Shown here piece after piece: positions 43,939-58,075 of a stretch of 64,000 nucleotides of DNA (position 1 is its first letter; each line of letters begins with the position of its first letter). A model generated the notes under the pieces. The model was not told where the DNA came from. It made no database searches and worked only from the letters and a program-made list of their open reading frames with translations. The position numbers and the translations under genes were made by a program. The stretch is from a virus, in the IMG/VR virus record IMGVR_UViG_3300003690_000003, positions 96,001 to 160,000 of that record. The stretch is one strand, 5' to 3'.

Positions 43939-44694
43939 CTATTTGGTTCCTCGTATGGCAGGGTCAATATTATAAGCCTTAAAAAGTGGCTGTAGCTCCT
44001 GTTCATAATGAGAGGTAAGCCAACATGCCTTCCTTCCCAATGAACCACCGGTAATAGCGGTGGCCATATATGGAAATACGCTCGAATCATAGTGTAGGTT
44101 CCCTCGTTTGGGCTCTCCGCTATATGTGTAACACCCCCTAATACCCATACGTATGCATGCGTGTGATCCCCGAACTTCGCTATCTTGAATATTTCGTGGG
44201 GCAAAAAACTTAAAAAGATTCAGTAAGCGATCCTTTTTCCAGATTGCAGCTTGAGTAGAATAGATATATGTCGACCGGGGCGCCGAAGATATTTCAAATA
44301 AATCCAGCTCTTCAGAAACTTTCTGGTCCGGGAGTCGGGGATCGATCCCTGACTTTATTAGGCGTACAAAGCTGTAATCGGATTCCTTAAGAAACTGATT
44401 AATGGCACGAATTTTTTCTTCTTGTGCGTCATCATAAAGTATAAAATCTTCAAACATTACTAACACATGTTCTTCTTTCACCTGTGACATCGACTCAATA
44501 AACCTTTTACAATACACCTCTTCTTCATTATTTAGGACCTGGATACAGTTTGTCGGCAGCGTCTCAGCATGGTGGGGTATTAATACTGTCTTCTTGTCAA
44601 AAAACGGCGCATGTTTTTCAAGCTGTCCAAAAAACATAGACCATACATCCGCATAGCTGGGGTGAGTCCACACTACTAATCTTAAATTATCCAT
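43939..44694 (-). CDS. Putative GT-A-like glycosyltransferase
   Basis: VLVMFEDFIL (DxD-like) and QAAIWKK; last gene of the glycan cluster. Function inferred mainly from context. Confidence 0.4.
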   Translation of the reverse strand: MDNLRLVVWTHPSYADVWSMFFGQLEKHAPFFDKKTVLIPHHAETLPTNCIQVLNNEEEVYCKRFIESMSQVKEEHVLVMFEDFILYDDAQEEKIRAINQFLKESDYSFVRLIKSGIDPRLPDQKVSEELDLFEISSAPRSTYIYSTQAAIWKKDRLLNLFKFFAPRNIQDSEVRGSHACIRMGIRGCYTYSGEPKRGNLHYDSSVFPYMATAITGGSLGRKACWLTSHYEQELQPLFKAYNIDPAIRGTK

Positions 44695-44703
44695 GTTCTA
44701 TGC

Positions 44704-45066
44704 TTATATTTCCAATCCCAAAAGTCCCTTATTTCTATCAAGGTTTATAGCTACAGCATAGTCTTCGTTCCCGTCGGGCTTTCGATCGTTTACTAAATAT
44801 CTTTTACCGCCCCCAACTCCCAGAATAAGCTGATCATAAATAATACCTAGTTGTGACAGCTGTCTTTCTGTTTGGGACCGGGACCCTTCTCTGCGCCCAG
44901 ATACTAATATAATATTATAACCTTTTTTGTCCCATTCTAATAATGTTTCAACTGTTCCAGATAAAAGCTTTGGATTAAAATCTGGTTTGGTTGTTTCCGT
45001 GGCAGCGCCATGTTCTATCAATGTTCCGTCGATATCACAAAATATTGTTTTTGCCCTATTATCCAT
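44704..45066 (-). CDS. Small HAD-family phosphatase (EcbF/BcbF-like)
   Basis: IFCDIDGTL (motif I), VSGR (motif II), LVNDRKP. Confidence 0.75.
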   Translation of the reverse strand: MDNRAKTIFCDIDGTLIEHGAATETTKPDFNPKLLSGTVETLLEWDKKGYNIILVSGRREGSRSQTERQLSQLGIIYDQLILGVGGGKRYLVNDRKPDGNEDYAVAINLDRNKGLLGLEI

Positions 45067-55575: not shown

Positions 55576-56819
55576 AACACTTCTATATTACTTAAGCTTT
55601 CAAGCCACTCCACTTCTTCTTTAGAATAGATTGTAGAAATAAAATCTTTATACAACTGTTCAGCTTGAAAATTCTTTATAATATGTTTTTTCAACTTATT
55701 TGCGGCGGCCTGAAATCTCGTATGGTTTTTGTAAACTTCGCGAAGTTGTTTCTTGTAATCGCCCTCAACGGGATATGCCCACATCGAATCTTTCTCTACG
55801 ACGCCTTCCCAGTGAGCTTCAGGAGGCACAGTGCCAAGAGTATAAGCTACTTTTGCTACCATAGGTCTCAATTTACCATTTTTATTTGGAGCATAAAGAA
55901 AATCTGTATGGCCACTCCAAAGTGAAGTTACAATGGGTAATCCATTATATGCTGCTTCGAATAACGGTAACCCAAAGCCTTCTCCGTGACTTATAGAAAC
56001 CAAAGCTTTTATCTTATCATGGGTATAAAGCCATGTCATTTCTTCTTCCGAGAGAGTTCCGTGTAGCAAATATATTTTACATTTTCGCTCGCCGTATGGT
56101 CTCATTAATGCTTTCAAACGCATCTCGGTTATCTGCCTATCGATTATACAATCTTTGGCTATGTTAGTTTTTAAAACGAAACCAACTTCTTCATCTTTAA
56201 ACTCGTCTACAAACCACTTAAGAGTGTTATCTATATTTTTTCGCGGGCCCCATTGTGCCACTGTTAAAAAGTTAAAATCGTATTTCAAATCTATCCCCTC
56301 TAGAGAACTAGGTTCAAAATGTCGCACTGGATAGTTAATAACTTCAATCGGAGTCTCACATCTATAGTTTTCTACTATTTCGCCAGTCTCTTTGTTTTTT
56401 GCGTTGGCTGTGGTGGTCTCATATACTTGTTTGGAATGATTCGAGACTACAATAATCTTATCCATATCATTTCCTTTAGTGAGCCATATAGGTGCCACCT
56501 TGGTAGTTTCAATACCAGCAGTATACCCAATGTTTATGGGTGCTATTTTTTCCCATTCATTAGGAATTGTTACCTGAAGAGATATATCTAAAAGTCCCTT
56601 TGCTTGAACAAGTTTCATCGTTTTGAAAAGCAAGTGATCAAGCCACTGACGTTCTTCGCCTAGGCCCGTAATATACCCGGTGTGTCCCCATGGAATATTA
56701 ATGAGATATATATCAAATACATCTTCGCGACTTTTTAGTGCTCGAAGAGCAAATCTGGTTTGTTCTCCATAACCCGAACGAGAGAATGCGGGCCCTTTAA
56801 CTAATATTTTCTTTTTCAT
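55572..56819 (-). CDS. GT4-family glycosyltransferase
   Basis: SGYG, PRKN, GEGFGLPLFEA, WSGHTDF. Confidence 0.88.
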   Translation of the reverse strand: MKKKILVKGPAFSRSGYGEQTRFALRALKSREDVFDIYLINIPWGHTGYITGLGEERQWLDHLLFKTMKLVQAKGLLDISLQVTIPNEWEKIAPINIGYTAGIETTKVAPIWLTKGNDMDKIIVVSNHSKQVYETTTANAKNKETGEIVENYRCETPIEVINYPVRHFEPSSLEGIDLKYDFNFLTVAQWGPRKNIDNTLKWFVDEFKDEEVGFVLKTNIAKDCIIDRQITEMRLKALMRPYGERKCKIYLLHGTLSEEEMTWLYTHDKIKALVSISHGEGFGLPLFEAAYNGLPIVTSLWSGHTDFLYAPNKNGKLRPMVAKVAYTLGTVPPEAHWEGVVEKDSMWAYPVEGDYKKQLREVYKNHTRFQAAANKLKKHIIKNFQAEQLYKDFISTIYSKEEVEWLESLSNIEVL

Positions 56820-58075
56820 ACTATCTCCAAGAACTCATATGCTATATAACCTTTTCGTGTATTCCACGAACCGTTGATCTCGTAAACTTCTTTTAAGGTC
56901 TCATCCCATTTTTCTATATAAGTTGCGAAATTATAGTTTTTCGTAACATGGGCTACTCCTAGGTGACCCATTTCTGCTCGCTGTTCGGCTGTCAAATTGT
57001 AAAAGTCTACTAAAGCCTTAACAAAATCATCTTTATTTAATCGGTCTTCAAAAATATATGGAACGTCTTGAGAGCCAATAACCGCTTTAGAAACAGACTC
57101 AAGTCCAATTCCAAACCAGTTCTCTCCGTCGGTTACTTGTTCTTGAAGTCCTCCTGTCATATTAACAATAATAGGTGTTTCACATGCTAACGATTCTAAT
57201 GTAGCCAGCCCAAATCCCTCTGCATCAGCAATATTAATCGTGCAATCTGCCATATTATACATCAGGGCCATGCCTTCGGGAGGCAATTTGTCTCTAGAAA
57301 GCATTATTTCTCCATTTGTTAGCCCCAACTCATACATAATATGTTCTAAATCTTGCCCATGGACATCTTTTGGTTCGGTGTGCATAATCAAACACGCGTT
57401 ATCGTGTCCTACCTTGTCCAAAAACTCCTTAAACCAGAAAATCAATGTTCCACTTTGCTTTCGGCGCGCATTTCGATTATTCCAAAAAAATACAAATTTC
57501 TTCGGATTATTTAAGTGTGTTTGTCGAAATGTTTCTACAACCTCCGCGTCTAGTTTTTTAAAATATGTCGGATCAACAGCATGAGGAAGATATAAAGATT
57601 TAACTGTCGGTGAAACCGTTTTAACTATATCATATGTCACTTTAGATATACAAGCGACACAATCGTTTGAATCATAAAACTTTTTGTTAAAACGAGGATA
57701 AGGATAATTATCCCATACGTGATAATATACCATCGGAACAAGAGAACGAATCTCGTTTTCTATCTCCCACAACCAACCGTAAAAACGAGGATCCGTCATA
57801 AACCATAAAATATCCGGTTTTTGCTGAATTAATATAGATCTAACCTGGTCCTGTGTACCATATCCATCAACAGGAAAAATAAGCCAATCATCACCCCACT
57901 GCTCGGTTTTTTGAGCATTATGATCATCATGCCGCATCGCTCCAGCAAAAGATATAAACTGATAACGACCTGTCTTAAGCAGTCCTTCAATAATATACTT
58001 TGTTTGAGTTCCCACTCCGGAAGGAGAAAGAGGATGATCACTTATAGTGAAAATCTTGATTTTTTTATCTGTCAT
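56816..58075 (-). CDS. GT4-family glycosyltransferase
   Basis: SGVG, NRNARRK, AEGFGLATLESLAC, TGGLQEQ. Confidence 0.9.
   Translation of the reverse strand: MTDKKIKIFTISDHPLSPSGVGTQTKYIIEGLLKTGRYQFISFAGAMRHDDHNAQKTEQWGDDWLIFPVDGYGTQDQVRSILIQQKPDILWFMTDPRFYGWLWEIENEIRSLVPMVYYHVWDNYPYPRFNKKFYDSNDCVACISKVTYDIVKTVSPTVKSLYLPHAVDPTYFKKLDAEVVETFRQTHLNNPKKFVFFWNNRNARRKQSGTLIFWFKEFLDKVGHDNACLIMHTEPKDVHGQDLEHIMYELGLTNGEIMLSRDKLPPEGMALMYNMADCTINIADAEGFGLATLESLACETPIIVNMTGGLQEQVTDGENWFGIGLESVSKAVIGSQDVPYIFEDRLNKDDFVKALVDFYNLTAEQRAEMGHLGVAHVTKNYNFATYIEKWDETLKEVYEINGSWNTRKGYIAYEFLEIV

Follow-up and report, generated by a model that had tools for sequence, protein, structure and literature searches.

A fixed genomic slot of a marine myovirus lineage holds core glycosyltransferases and a variable sugar cassette, with virion proteins as putative acceptor

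Introduction

A phage locus rich in genes for glycosyltransferases (GTs) and sugar activation raises the question of which molecule receives its glycan. We addressed this question for an island in IMG/VR virus record IMGVR_UViG_3300003690_000003, which is 170,861 bp long and rated 94% complete. The window analysed here, 64,000 nucleotides in all, comprises bases 96001-160000 of that record, and positions below are those of the window. The island occupies 43939-58075 on the minus strand and contains 16 open reading frames (ORFs), g01 to g16. An earlier reading of the DNA letters (the sequence-only reading) had described it as a phage-encoded system of glycan biosynthesis and transfer.

The interpretation that we favour, and on which our confidence is evenly divided, is that the island is a cytoplasmic glycan system with virion proteins as putative acceptor. 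A phage-owned system, housed at a constant genomic position in an abundant lineage of marine myoviruses, would build a glycan in the cytoplasm without a lipid carrier. Three soluble GT-B-type proteins common to the lineage (GT4a, GT4b and g03) would place the first sugar or sugars on a conserved acceptor, and the genes behind this trio would make up a cassette specific to the strain, the source of rare activated sugars and of enzymes for extending and decorating the glycan. The acceptor would most plausibly be serine or threonine on exposed virion proteins, glycosylated before assembly.

A conserved core ahead of a variable cassette

Neighbouring ORFs of the island overlap by at most 29 nt; where they do not overlap, the gap is no wider than 9 nt. 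The sequence-only reading had described 15 tightly coupled genes; the coupling is as tight as it claimed, although the count is 16. Nearly all genes of this phage share the orientation of the island, with 189 of 205 non-overlapping ORFs on the minus strand. Upstream of the island are phoH, two small genes (x111 and M244) and then a PD-(D/E)XK nuclease. Downstream, past several small border genes, are genes for a 2526-aa protein, a baseplate wedge protein and a 4098-aa protein. The nuclease and zinc ribbon that had been named as flanks are both present, but a 72-aa ORF that is no zinc ribbon (d72) intervenes between the latter and the island. The zinc ribbon itself, d82 (43406-43654), is of the FmdB type and carries CxxC...CxxC. 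The borders of the slot and the core genes are as follows.

58086-58847, minus strand: PD-(D/E)XK nuclease, conserved upstream border of the slot (PF12705, PDDEXK_1, 67.7 bits; cut-off 22)
56816-58075, minus strand: g01, GT4a, 419 aa, lineage-core retaining-type GT-B transferase (Glycos_transf_1 47.7 bits, cut-off 26.4; phrog_2170, 3e-28)
55572-56819, minus strand: g02, GT4b, 415 aa, second core GT4 and paralogue-like partner of GT4a (Glycos_transf_1 30.1 bits, cut-off 26.4)
54706-55575, minus strand: g03, 289 aa, probable compact GT-B-like third core transferase (motifs, ESM Atlas neighbours, fusions)
42398-43872, minus strand: conserved downstream border, made up of d72 (43654-43872), d82 (43406-43654), d111 (43074-43409) and d236 (42398-43108)

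Relatives of GT4a were obtained from 560 of 562 candidate IMG/VR stretches, and the best 80 (62-71% identity) were taken with at most 10 kb on each side. Because these loci end within 10 kb after GT4a, counts of distal genes are lower bounds. Core genes and the nuclease were present in most loci (GT4a in 80, the nuclease in 78, GT4b in 77 and g03 in 60), and the order phoH, x111, M244, nuclease, GT4a, GT4b, g03 where present, then a variable part was near-universal. Genes of the cassette were far rarer: g09 occurred in 15 loci, g07 in 14, g04 in 12, g10 in seven, g05 and g06 in five each, g12 in four, g08 in three, g16 in two, g11, g13 and g15 in one each, and g14 in none. The sequence-only reading had expected conserved GT4s and a variable remainder between these borders, and this is what the loci show. 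When the nuclease was used as an independent probe, GT4a lay just downstream in 19 of 20 loci, the exception being a nuclease of 29% identity.

The far end of the slot is also recognisable. The downstream border (d72, zinc ribbon, d111, d236) was found after the cassette in loci L044 and L053, and among five relatives rated 100% complete, d236 was present in all five, d111 in four, d72 in three and d82 in two. Measured from the GT4a start to the d236 start, the slot is 15.0 kb long here (computed from coordinates) and 9.8, 10.3, 14.2, 20.0, 21.2, 21.8 and 21.8 kb long in seven others.

To describe cassette turnover, we compared 653 plus-strand ORFs behind GT4b from 77 loci, covering the first 10 kb. 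These fell into 215 clusters; when the window's own proteins were included, there were 228 clusters, 122 of them singletons. The commonest encode a nucleoside-diphosphate-sugar dehydratase/epimerase (38 of the 77 loci), a DegT aminotransferase (27), Glyco_trans_1_2 (21) and a g03-GT2 fusion (20), followed by GT2 (18), GT1 (14), NeuB (12), FkbM methyltransferase (9), B12-radical SAM (8) and UDP-glucose dehydrogenase (8). A Pfam scan of representatives of 150 of the 215 clusters returned 94 families at E values of at most 1e-5, sulfotransferases, GT11 and transketolase among them. Cassette content was uncoupled from GT4a divergence (Spearman rho 0.02; 2145 pairs from 66 loci). In the 10 pairs with GT4a 85-95% identical, the median cassette Jaccard index was 0.06 and four pairs had no cluster in common; sharing of cassettes was confined to pairs with GT4a at least 95% identical (10 pairs). 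Such uncoupling is what a swappable cassette predicts, and the earlier proposal of one is supported by these values over the 10 kb compared.

The same arrangement of a nuclease, a GT and another GT followed by a different sugar cassette is seen in two phages in culture, Flavobacterium phage immuto and Microcystis phage Mel-JY01, with GT4a at about 30% identity. For the baseplate wedge protein, too, these two are the closest relatives in culture (31% identity). Because synteny and baseplate kinship coincide, the transferase pair looks as old as the virion module, and it persists across host phyla; such synteny argues for an acceptor that is phage-encoded or universal.

Core transferases

GT4a and GT4b pass the Pfam cut-off for Glycos_transf_1 and carry the E-x7-E motif, which places both in GT4. 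Both glutamates of GT4a, E286 and E294, are invariant, as is E280 of GT4b, whose E288 occurs in at least 90% of sequences. Because both retain the motif, both look catalytic. An alignment of 36 GT4a sequences had a mean column identity of 67% and 95 invariant columns, 49 of them in the first 165 residues. In GT-B enzymes the N-terminal half forms the acceptor side. Across relatives, median identity was 65% for GT4a versus 64% for phoH.

The two proteins are related to each other in their C-terminal halves (hhalign probability 93.6%, E 2.1e-7). Their top PDB match is also the same, namely 3oy2, the chlorovirus protein B736L, with 5.8e-8 for GT4a (residues 195-323) and 1.2e-4 for GT4b (residues 149-308). 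The best curated models for GT4a were BshA, monoglucosyl-diacylglycerol synthase and MshA, all far under their cut-offs. A likeness of GT4b to GtfA structures (E 0.63-0.65) was not significant and was rejected as evidence.

The third core protein, g03, is probably a further member of a transferase trio, judging from its motifs, ESM Atlas neighbours and fusions. Scans against Pfam, NCBIfam and PHROG returned no match, a profile search of the PDB returned nothing relevant, and profile comparison was not significant (hhalign probability 1.4% with GT4a and 0.5% with GT4b). Conserved motifs in g03 are GG...E and PET..R...EAKM, the latter E-x7-E-like. Its ESM Atlas family is viral only, with neighbour clusters that carry Glycos_transf_1 on 65% and 18% of members, and one Atlas model is common to the GT4b-fused and GT2-fused forms. 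In relatives, g03 either follows GT4b within a single ORF (657-713 aa) or precedes a GT2 domain within one (532-554 aa). These fusions are Rosetta-stone-type links within the core (loci L006, L009, L025, L030, L037, L045, L052, L066, L069, L078, L083 and others).

In the sequence-only reading, the island held a GT4 trio and five or six GT domains. Two members of that trio, g01 and g02, stand above the Pfam cut-off, but g03 shows no significant similarity to GT4a or GT4b. As for the tally, four domains in three proteins exceed the Pfam cut-off (g01, g02 and two in g10); g03 is a probable fifth, and g16 would be a sixth by guess only.

Sugar-activation modules

The two precursor modules that had been postulated are identifiable as g04-g09 (module A) and g11-g15 (module B). 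Module A and the transferase gene that follows it read as below.

53840-54709, minus strand: g04, RpiB isomerase fused to an HldE-domain-II-like nucleotidyltransferase (PF02502 166.5 bits; PF01467 73.4 bits)
52932-53843, minus strand: g05, PfkB-family sugar(-phosphate) kinase, HldE-domain-I-like (PF00294 78.7 bits)
52262-52945, minus strand: g06, AraD-like L-ribulose-5-phosphate 4-epimerase with class II aldolase fold (PF00596 146.9 bits)
51853-52290, minus strand: g07, cupin, candidate sugar-phosphate isomerase (Cupin_1 37.5 bits; MannoseP_isomer 25.7 bits, cut-off 23.6)
51188-51856, minus strand: g08, FSA/TalC-type transaldolase or fructose-6-phosphate aldolase (PF00923 161.6 bits; TIGR00875 165.4 bits, below 245.95)
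50871-51200, minus strand: g09, 109-aa small HAD phosphatase, RB69 gp51/AfhF-type homologue (RB69p051 and PDB matches)
49092-50864, minus strand: g10, 590 aa, two-domain glycosyltransferase (Glyco_trans_1_2 81.8 bits, cut-off 25, residues 160-287; GT9 24.0 bits, cut-off 22, residues 414-532)

The RpiB/LacAB assignment of g04 exceeds the cut-offs of two models (TIGR01120, 150.8 bits against 138.65; NF004051, 171.3 against 135), and g04 scored 154.3 bits against TIGR02199 (HldE domain II), below the cut-off of 181.5. Proteins with this domain fusion are frequent in marine metagenomes: both domains are present in each of the best 120 relatives listed, at 59-100% identity, and their given source names are all metagenomes or metagenome-assembled genomes (MAGs). 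The kinase g05 reached 91 bits against TIGR02198, far below 345, and also matched ribokinase and ribose-1-phosphate kinase models weakly. For g06, the AraD subfamily model NF006047 was exceeded (269.6 bits against 257), whereas the equivalog TIGR00760 was not (246.5 against 389.1).

The phosphatase g09 is 39% identical to RB69p051 over 104 residues (E 7e-21), which marks it as a homologue of the AfhF-type family. Its PDB matches are 9iqw (8.4e-15) and 1xpj (4e-9), and according to excerpts of PMC13326640, 1xpj is also the top structural match of RB69 gp51 and DLP3 gp81. The same excerpts describe gp51 (DLP3 gp81, HY126 AfhF) as the phosphatase that converts arabinofuranose-1,5-bisphosphate to the 1-phosphate, a step after the kinase and before the nucleotidyltransferase, the latter two being fused as AfhE. 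Our search of the literature for AfhE and AfhF returned PMC13326640 only.

Directly after g09, both here and in L017 and L018, comes g10. Its membership of GT9 (PF01075) is marginal, its score against the TibC/Aah equivalog is far below the cut-off (19.4 bits against 200, E 4.1e-4), and it had no sequence match in the PDB. Module A (g04-g09) recurs as one travelling block in L017, L018, L051 and L068. A reduced module of nucleotidyltransferase, kinase, g09-type phosphatase and cupin is found in L038, L048, L049, L058 and L064, and g07 is the cupin that accompanies the g09-type phosphatase and the nucleotidyltransferase in such reduced forms.

Module A probably feeds the two-domain transferase g10. 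Its product may be a pentofuranose or a heptose. RpiB, the AraD-like enzyme and the gp51-like phosphatase point to a pentofuranose, and FSA-type aldolases have arabinose-5-phosphate activity, which would favour it. A heptose is favoured instead by the HldE-like matches and by the GT9 domain in g10.

Module B and the last gene of the island are listed here.

47933-49105, minus strand: g11, S-adenosylmethionine-dependent methyltransferase with a C-terminal region of the sugar C-methyltransferase type (Methyltransf_23 44.8 bits; Methyltransf_14 22.3 bits, under 23.5)
47583-47936, minus strand: g12, cupin of the mannose-6-phosphate-isomerase C-terminal type (PF01050 100.8 bits; Cupin_2 50.2 bits)
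46020-47582, minus strand: g13, N-terminal nucleotidyltransferase and C-terminal APH-type kinase, an AfhE-like architecture (NTP_transferase 32.1 bits, cut-off 21.2, residues 5-235; APH 23.8 bits, cut-off 23.2, residues 370-429)
45059-46030, minus strand: g14, 323 aa, possibly class II aldolase or GatZ-KbaZ-like, a lead from Atlas neighbours
44704-45066, minus strand: g15, small HAD phosphatase, PNKP-phosphatase-like (HAD_PNKP 30.3 bits; Acid_phosphat_B 29.6 bits; PDB 4xrp, Pnkp1, 2.1e-6)
43939-44694, minus strand: g16, 251 aa, last island gene, no library match

The PDB match of g13 is LicC (1jyk, 6.5e-7), and excerpts of PMC13326640 report the LicC fold family for the RB69/DLP3 enzyme too. 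Pairwise, g13 is marginally similar to RB69p052 (E 0.021) and scores E 0.23 with RB69p053; tblastn gave no match in RB69-like phages. As a separate observation, the sole good match of g13 in the phage collection is Marine virus AG-345-E15 (MH319741.1, 16013-17551; 45% identity over 99% of the length). That sequence came from a single amplified marine cell and is a possible host lead for part of the cassette gene pool.

Pfam and PHROG scans of g14 were without match. Its Atlas feature neighbours are viral, with GatZ_KbaZ-like annotation on 16% of one cluster (score 0.94), and F_bP_aldolase clusters reach only 0.85. The phosphatase g15 has no similarity to RB69p051. For g16, Pfam and PHROG scans and a PDB profile search were empty, and its 30 homologues are unnamed metagenome proteins with no function-bearing name and no Pfam domain. 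The residues E82 D83 ... H201 D203 are invariant in g16, and from this ED...H.D pattern we would guess at a sixth GT.

Both modules appear to be bisphosphate-route nucleotide-sugar pathways, because g09 resembles gp51, g13 has the fusion architecture and module A contains the same steps. In the proposed order of reactions, a sugar phosphate would first be isomerised or epimerised, its anomeric carbon would be phosphorylated by the kinase, the distal phosphate would be removed by the small HAD phosphatase, and the sugar would be activated by the nucleotidyltransferase. Module B would add a methylated sugar.

Export and priming machinery

The sequence-only reading had noted the lack of a flippase, polymerase or export gene and had taken it to mean that the product is probably attached in the cytoplasm. 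We scanned for hydrophobic segments, crudely defined as 19-residue windows with a Kyte-Doolittle mean of at least 1.6. None of the 16 island proteins has such a segment (top mean 1.41), no ORF of at least 60 aa in the whole record has more than four, and the Bac_transf priming transferase is absent from this 94% complete record. In the relatives' cassettes, none of the 653 ORFs (77 loci), and none of the 70 further ORFs that complete the cassettes of five complete relatives, has three or more. The island does not qualify as a Wzx/Wzy- or ABC-transporter-dependent locus, since no priming enzyme, flippase, transporter, polymerase or ligase was seen.

The core transferases of lipopolysaccharide (LPS) and many O-unit transferases (GT4 and GT9) are themselves soluble or peripheral and work with carriers and flippases that the cell provides. 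The absence of export genes holds genome-wide by the hydropathy scan of the 94% complete record, but the step from there to a cytoplasmic acceptor is not watertight, because LPS enzymes of GT4 and GT9 are soluble or peripheral.

Candidate acceptors

Several observations are consistent with virion proteins as the acceptor. The baseplate and giant-protein genes lie just downstream of the island and have the same orientation. Seven of 104 ORFs show an excess (z of at least 5.7) of the tripeptide [ST][GA]S; six of these are mostly large and lie among or adjoin structural genes (4098, 913, 513, 460, 366 and 208 aa). The 4098-aa ORF has 34 such motifs where 10.3 are expected; the seventh ORF is the island's own g08, with only two motifs, and the whole island has 3 against 3.65 expected. 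The dehydratase/epimerase, DegT, NeuB and FkbM content of the relatives looks glycoprotein-like, which would support this interpretation. A further hint is that both GT4s match a chlorovirus transferase best in the PDB.

A number of points weigh against a virion-protein acceptor. The glycan and its acceptor are predictions from gene content, sequence statistics fail to demonstrate that g03 is a GT, and g04 and g05 fall below the HldE cut-offs although HldE models are their best matches. The surplus of [ST][GA]S could be no more than a result of the composition of fibrous repeats. A host-envelope product is compatible with the missing export genes, because soluble GT4 and GT9 enzymes of LPS synthesis use host flippases, and envelope change is the published reading of comparable variable GT/rfaE clusters in pelagimyophages and cyanomyophages (excerpts of PMC7029224 and PMC12801897). 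Two further likenesses are to DNA-modifying systems: g09 is 39% identical to RB69 gp51, an enzyme of a DNA-arabinosylation pathway, and the arabinosyltransferases of RB69 and DLP3 are described in excerpts of PMC13326640 as GT4-like, with the same PDB neighbours as GT4a (BshA, MshA and 6kih).

We consider it less likely, though a serious alternative, that the island remodels the host envelope. Soluble transferases and sugar pathways of the phage would then act at the inner face of the membrane on lipid-linked intermediates or LPS core of the host. Host flippases and exporters would bring the changed glycan to the surface, perhaps to block superinfection or to keep progeny from sticking to debris. 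The GT9 domain of g10 and the HldE-like enzymes belong to families best known from LPS core synthesis, and the NeuB, DegT, dehydratase and GT2 genes of relatives also match O-antigen and capsule loci. Against this, the scans above turned up no phosphoglycosyltransferase for priming and no flippase, polymerase or ligase, either in the phage or in the relatives' cassettes. Synteny of the core GT pair extends to phages of Bacteroidota and Cyanobacteria, whose envelope acceptors differ, and the N-terminal half of GT4a is as invariant as the donor half across phages with unrelated cassettes. Furthermore, a search of 185,579 species genomes with strict patterns, which detect close relatives only, found close relatives of GT4a on 11 MAG contigs and in no isolate genome. 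Among these contigs (L111-L121), which are labelled Pelagibacter, Woesearchaeota, Flavobacteriales, Maricaulis, WOR-3 and others, one is 116 kb long and another is a 2.85-Mb 'chromosome'; the probable cause is that phage contigs were mis-binned into, or joined with, cellular MAGs.

It is quite improbable that the island serves a metabolic takeover, in which RpiB, the AraD-like enzyme and transaldolase rewire the pentose-phosphate pathway and a glycolipid or soluble glycoside, not a displayed glycan, comes from the transferases. Transaldolase genes of the FSA/TalC type are familiar auxiliary genes of cyanophages, which fits such a role for g08, and the best curated models of GT4a, all far below cut-offs, are small-molecule and lipid glycosyltransferases. 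However, the g04-g09 block, with its nucleotidyltransferase, kinase and phosphatase, points to sugar activation, and five GT domains, methyltransferases and hypervariable content better fit an exposed glycan under diversifying selection.

DNA as the acceptor, which the sequence-only reading had offered beside virion proteins, we hold to be very improbable. An activated pentose or other sugar would be put by GT4-type enzymes on a modified base, as in the arabinosyl-5-hydroxycytosine of RB69 and DLP3. Besides the likenesses given above, the AfhE-like architecture of g13 and the conserved neighbouring nuclease favour this, and phage GT clusters that place hexose, N-acetylhexosamine or heptose on 5-hydroxymethylcytosine are known (excerpts of bioRxiv 2023.12.21.572611). 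According to excerpts of PMC13326640 and bioRxiv 2023.12.21.572611, sugar-bearing phage DNA needs a ThyA-type hydroxypyrimidine synthase or a methyltransferase with a dioxygenase. The sequence-only reading had suggested a search of the rest of the genome for base hydroxymethylases, and none of the ThyA type was found: PF00303 (ThyA) is absent from the record, from all eight large IMG/VR relatives (five of them 100% complete) and from Mel-JY01. The C5-methyltransferase PF00145 is also absent, and a search that lacked a positive control found no relative of RB69 gp48, the 5-hydroxy-dCMP (5hodCMP) synthase. A TET/JBP search (PF12851) was empty and is uninformative, its control having been silent everywhere. 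ThyX is present, for ordinary dTMP synthesis. With no hydroxypyrimidine-making enzyme found in this 94% complete record, the locus does not qualify as a phage DNA glycosylation system.

Two further points speak against DNA. The DNA of immuto, which has the nuclease/GT/GT/cassette arrangement, is reported to contain only dA, dC, dT and fdPreQ1; liquid chromatography with ultraviolet and mass-spectrometric detection (LC-UV-MS) gave dA, dC, dT and formyl-preQ1 replacing dG (excerpts of bioRxiv 2023.04.13.536721). In addition, cassette diversity (sulfotransferases, NeuB, many methyltransferases) exceeds the mono- to trisaccharide DNA sugars reported in excerpts of bioRxiv 2023.12.21.572611. DNA is weakened as a target by the absence of PF00303 and PF00145, and of the two acceptors first suggested, virion proteins are the best remaining candidate, albeit a putative one. 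As an observation in its own right, immuto, unlike the marine relatives, has a ThyA-family match in a 425-aa open frame (record positions 27314-28564; L085).

Finally, independent contigs have already refuted an assembly artefact in which host capsule or LPS DNA, which the island's gene content resembles, was joined to a phage contig. The chimera with host DNA that would have overturned the sequence-only reading is not borne out: same-strand, overlapping phage genes flank the island on both sides, its GC content (0.358-0.413 in 2-kb bins) lies inside the window range (0.358-0.520), 80 further viral contigs and two phages in culture share its architecture, and stretches almost identical to parts of it turn up in contigs of four further runs, drawn from four studies. 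These runs were chosen from 20 runs and 16 studies among the matches listed, none of them an RNA run; the top one could itself be the source sample. Across the g16/d72 junction, a contig from a sample of another study differs in 1 of 593 letters, and other independent contigs span the g03/g02, g02/g01, g13/g12/g11 and nuclease/M244/x111/phoH junctions.

Relation to known systems

The arrangement proposed here, a cytoplasmic system acting on virion proteins, has a close parallel in the O-glycosylation islands for flagellin and pilin of bacteria such as Campylobacter and Pseudomonas. These also combine soluble transferases with sugar-nucleotide routes, dispense with a lipid carrier and a flippase, modify serine or threonine of a self-assembling surface protein within the cytoplasm, vary between strains and include nonulosonic-acid (NeuB) and amino-sugar genes like those in the cassettes of the relatives. 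In contrast, the core transferases here are of the GT4 and not the Maf type, and the island is viral, in a fixed slot by virion genes.

Among viruses, mycobacteriophages that have been studied for virion glycosylation reportedly carry a few GT genes each. Their GTs have been proposed or shown to decorate capsid or tail proteins (Freeman et al. 2023, as cited in excerpts of PMC12619734 and PMC12801897). The likeness lies in phage-encoded GTs that act inside the cell; the system described here differs in having a conserved trio followed by a hypervariable cassette of 10-20 kb in which whole rare-sugar pathways are encoded, and in its host phyla and lineage. Chlorovirus NY-2A B736L (3oy2), the top structure match of both GT4a and GT4b, is likewise a virus-encoded soluble GT4, although the similarity covers the C-terminal, donor-side half only and the host is eukaryotic. 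Chloroviruses glycosylate their own capsid protein with their own enzymes. We know of no target of B736L itself.

The sugar routes invite two comparisons. The ADP-heptose pathway comprises GmhA, HldE and GmhB and is used with GT9 heptosyltransferases. Module A resembles it in a PfkB kinase and a nucleotidyltransferase that best match HldE I and II, and in the adjoining HAD-IIIA-type phosphatase and GT9 domain, but has RpiB and a cupin in place of the GmhA (SIS) isomerase, and its kinase and transferase are split and re-fused otherwise. The UDP-arabinofuranose route for DNA arabinosylation in RB69, DLP3 and HY126 (excerpts of PMC13326640) likewise combines an isomerase, an anomeric kinase, a HAD phosphatase and a nucleotidyltransferase with GT4-like transferases. 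Here, in contrast, there is no ThyA-type 5-hydroxy-dCMP synthase, RpiB or a cupin replaces the SIS-type arabinose-5-phosphate isomerase, the kinase of module A is a separate PfkB-type protein, its nucleotidyltransferase is HldE-II-like, and g13 reaches only E 0.021 against RB69 gp52:53.

GtfB of the GtfA/GtfB pair, which primes serine-rich-repeat adhesins with O-linked N-acetylglucosamine, is non-catalytic. The likeness would be that two adjacent GT-B proteins may prime surface proteins rich in serine and threonine; both phage GT4s, however, keep the catalytic E-x7-E, and the match of GT4b to GtfA is not significant. The 'host recognition cluster' of pelagimyophages and cyanomyophages (PMC7029224) is also a variable region of GT and sugar-nucleotide genes near tail or fibre genes of marine myophages. 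Excerpts of that paper describe no conserved priming trio in a fixed slot and interpret the cluster as a change of host O-chains. Those phages belong to a different lineage, with no Pelagibacter phage or T4-like cyanophage among the GT4a matches; for the baseplate protein, one Synechococcus phage was among the matches listed, and that match was partial (20% of the query).

Literature searches on the transferases of this lineage, including those of Far-T4, Mel-JY01 and immuto, returned nothing specific, and a broad search on capsid glycosylation gave nothing pertinent among the papers listed. Variable sugar clusters of marine myophages and phage virion glycosylation are already in print; the novelty lies in the core-plus-cassette organisation of a fixed slot in this lineage and in the composition of the two sugar modules. 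More tentatively, and with some doubt, we suggest that an abundant, globally distributed marine myovirus lineage universally coats its virions with strain-specific cytoplasmic glycans, a form of 'phage serotype' made by a three-transferase primer on structural proteins and a cassette that is quickly exchanged.

Phage particles are usually treated as bare protein. If virions of this lineage are glycosylated, the virion glycan would stand beside the tail fibre as a major axis of marine phage diversification, and adsorption, escape from host or grazer recognition, sticking to marine gels and the phage 'LPS genes' of metagenomes would need to be rethought. Among the contents of the 'serotype' cassettes would be nucleotide-sugar routes not described before, one example being the combination of the RpiB-nucleotidyltransferase fusion, an AraD-like epimerase and an FSA-type aldolase. 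The fixed slot would also be a natural toolbox of soluble glycosylation enzymes and of compact kinase/phosphatase/nucleotidyltransferase routes to activated rare sugars. The question can be tested at the bench because the cultured phages immuto and Mel-JY01 keep the same architecture.

Neighbouring genes and sequence signals

M244 (58848-59582, minus strand) adjoins the nuclease and encodes a conserved 244-aa protein that was present in 73 of the 80 loci; its C-terminus has a weak, sub-cut-off match to zinc metallopeptidases (ATLF, 24.3 bits against 27.4; Peptidase_M90). The giant ORFs of the virion module, also on the minus strand, are those of 4098 aa (16439-28735) and 2526 aa (32595-40175), the latter without match in the PHROG scan. 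A megablast search of the phage collection with the island gave no match.

Searches for promoters and terminators gave no operon boundary. The T4 late promoter TATAAATA had 14 matches against 7.5 expected, none of them informatively placed, and was dropped; scans for sigma-70 promoters (75 against 63.5 in shuffles) and terminators (21 against 12.2) were near their shuffles. An 8-mer, CTATTTA[AT], is found 23 times on the coding (minus) strand of the whole genome and once on the plus strand. Twelve of the 23 are within 60 nt upstream of start codons, several of them ahead of genes of the structural region, and the island contains none. Examples on the minus strand, in window coordinates, are 32548-32555, 59582-59589 and 65073-65080, one of which abuts the M244 start. 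This element may be a late-promoter-like or start-region signal of the lineage. A perfect sigma-70 consensus (12/12, with a 17-nt spacer) is located inside phoH (60056-60084, minus strand), about 200 nt upstream of the run formed by x111, M244, the nuclease and the island. Similar TTGAC...ATAAT pairs, with a AAAGTTTT-rich element ahead, occur elsewhere in the genome in intergenic spacers of the early region.

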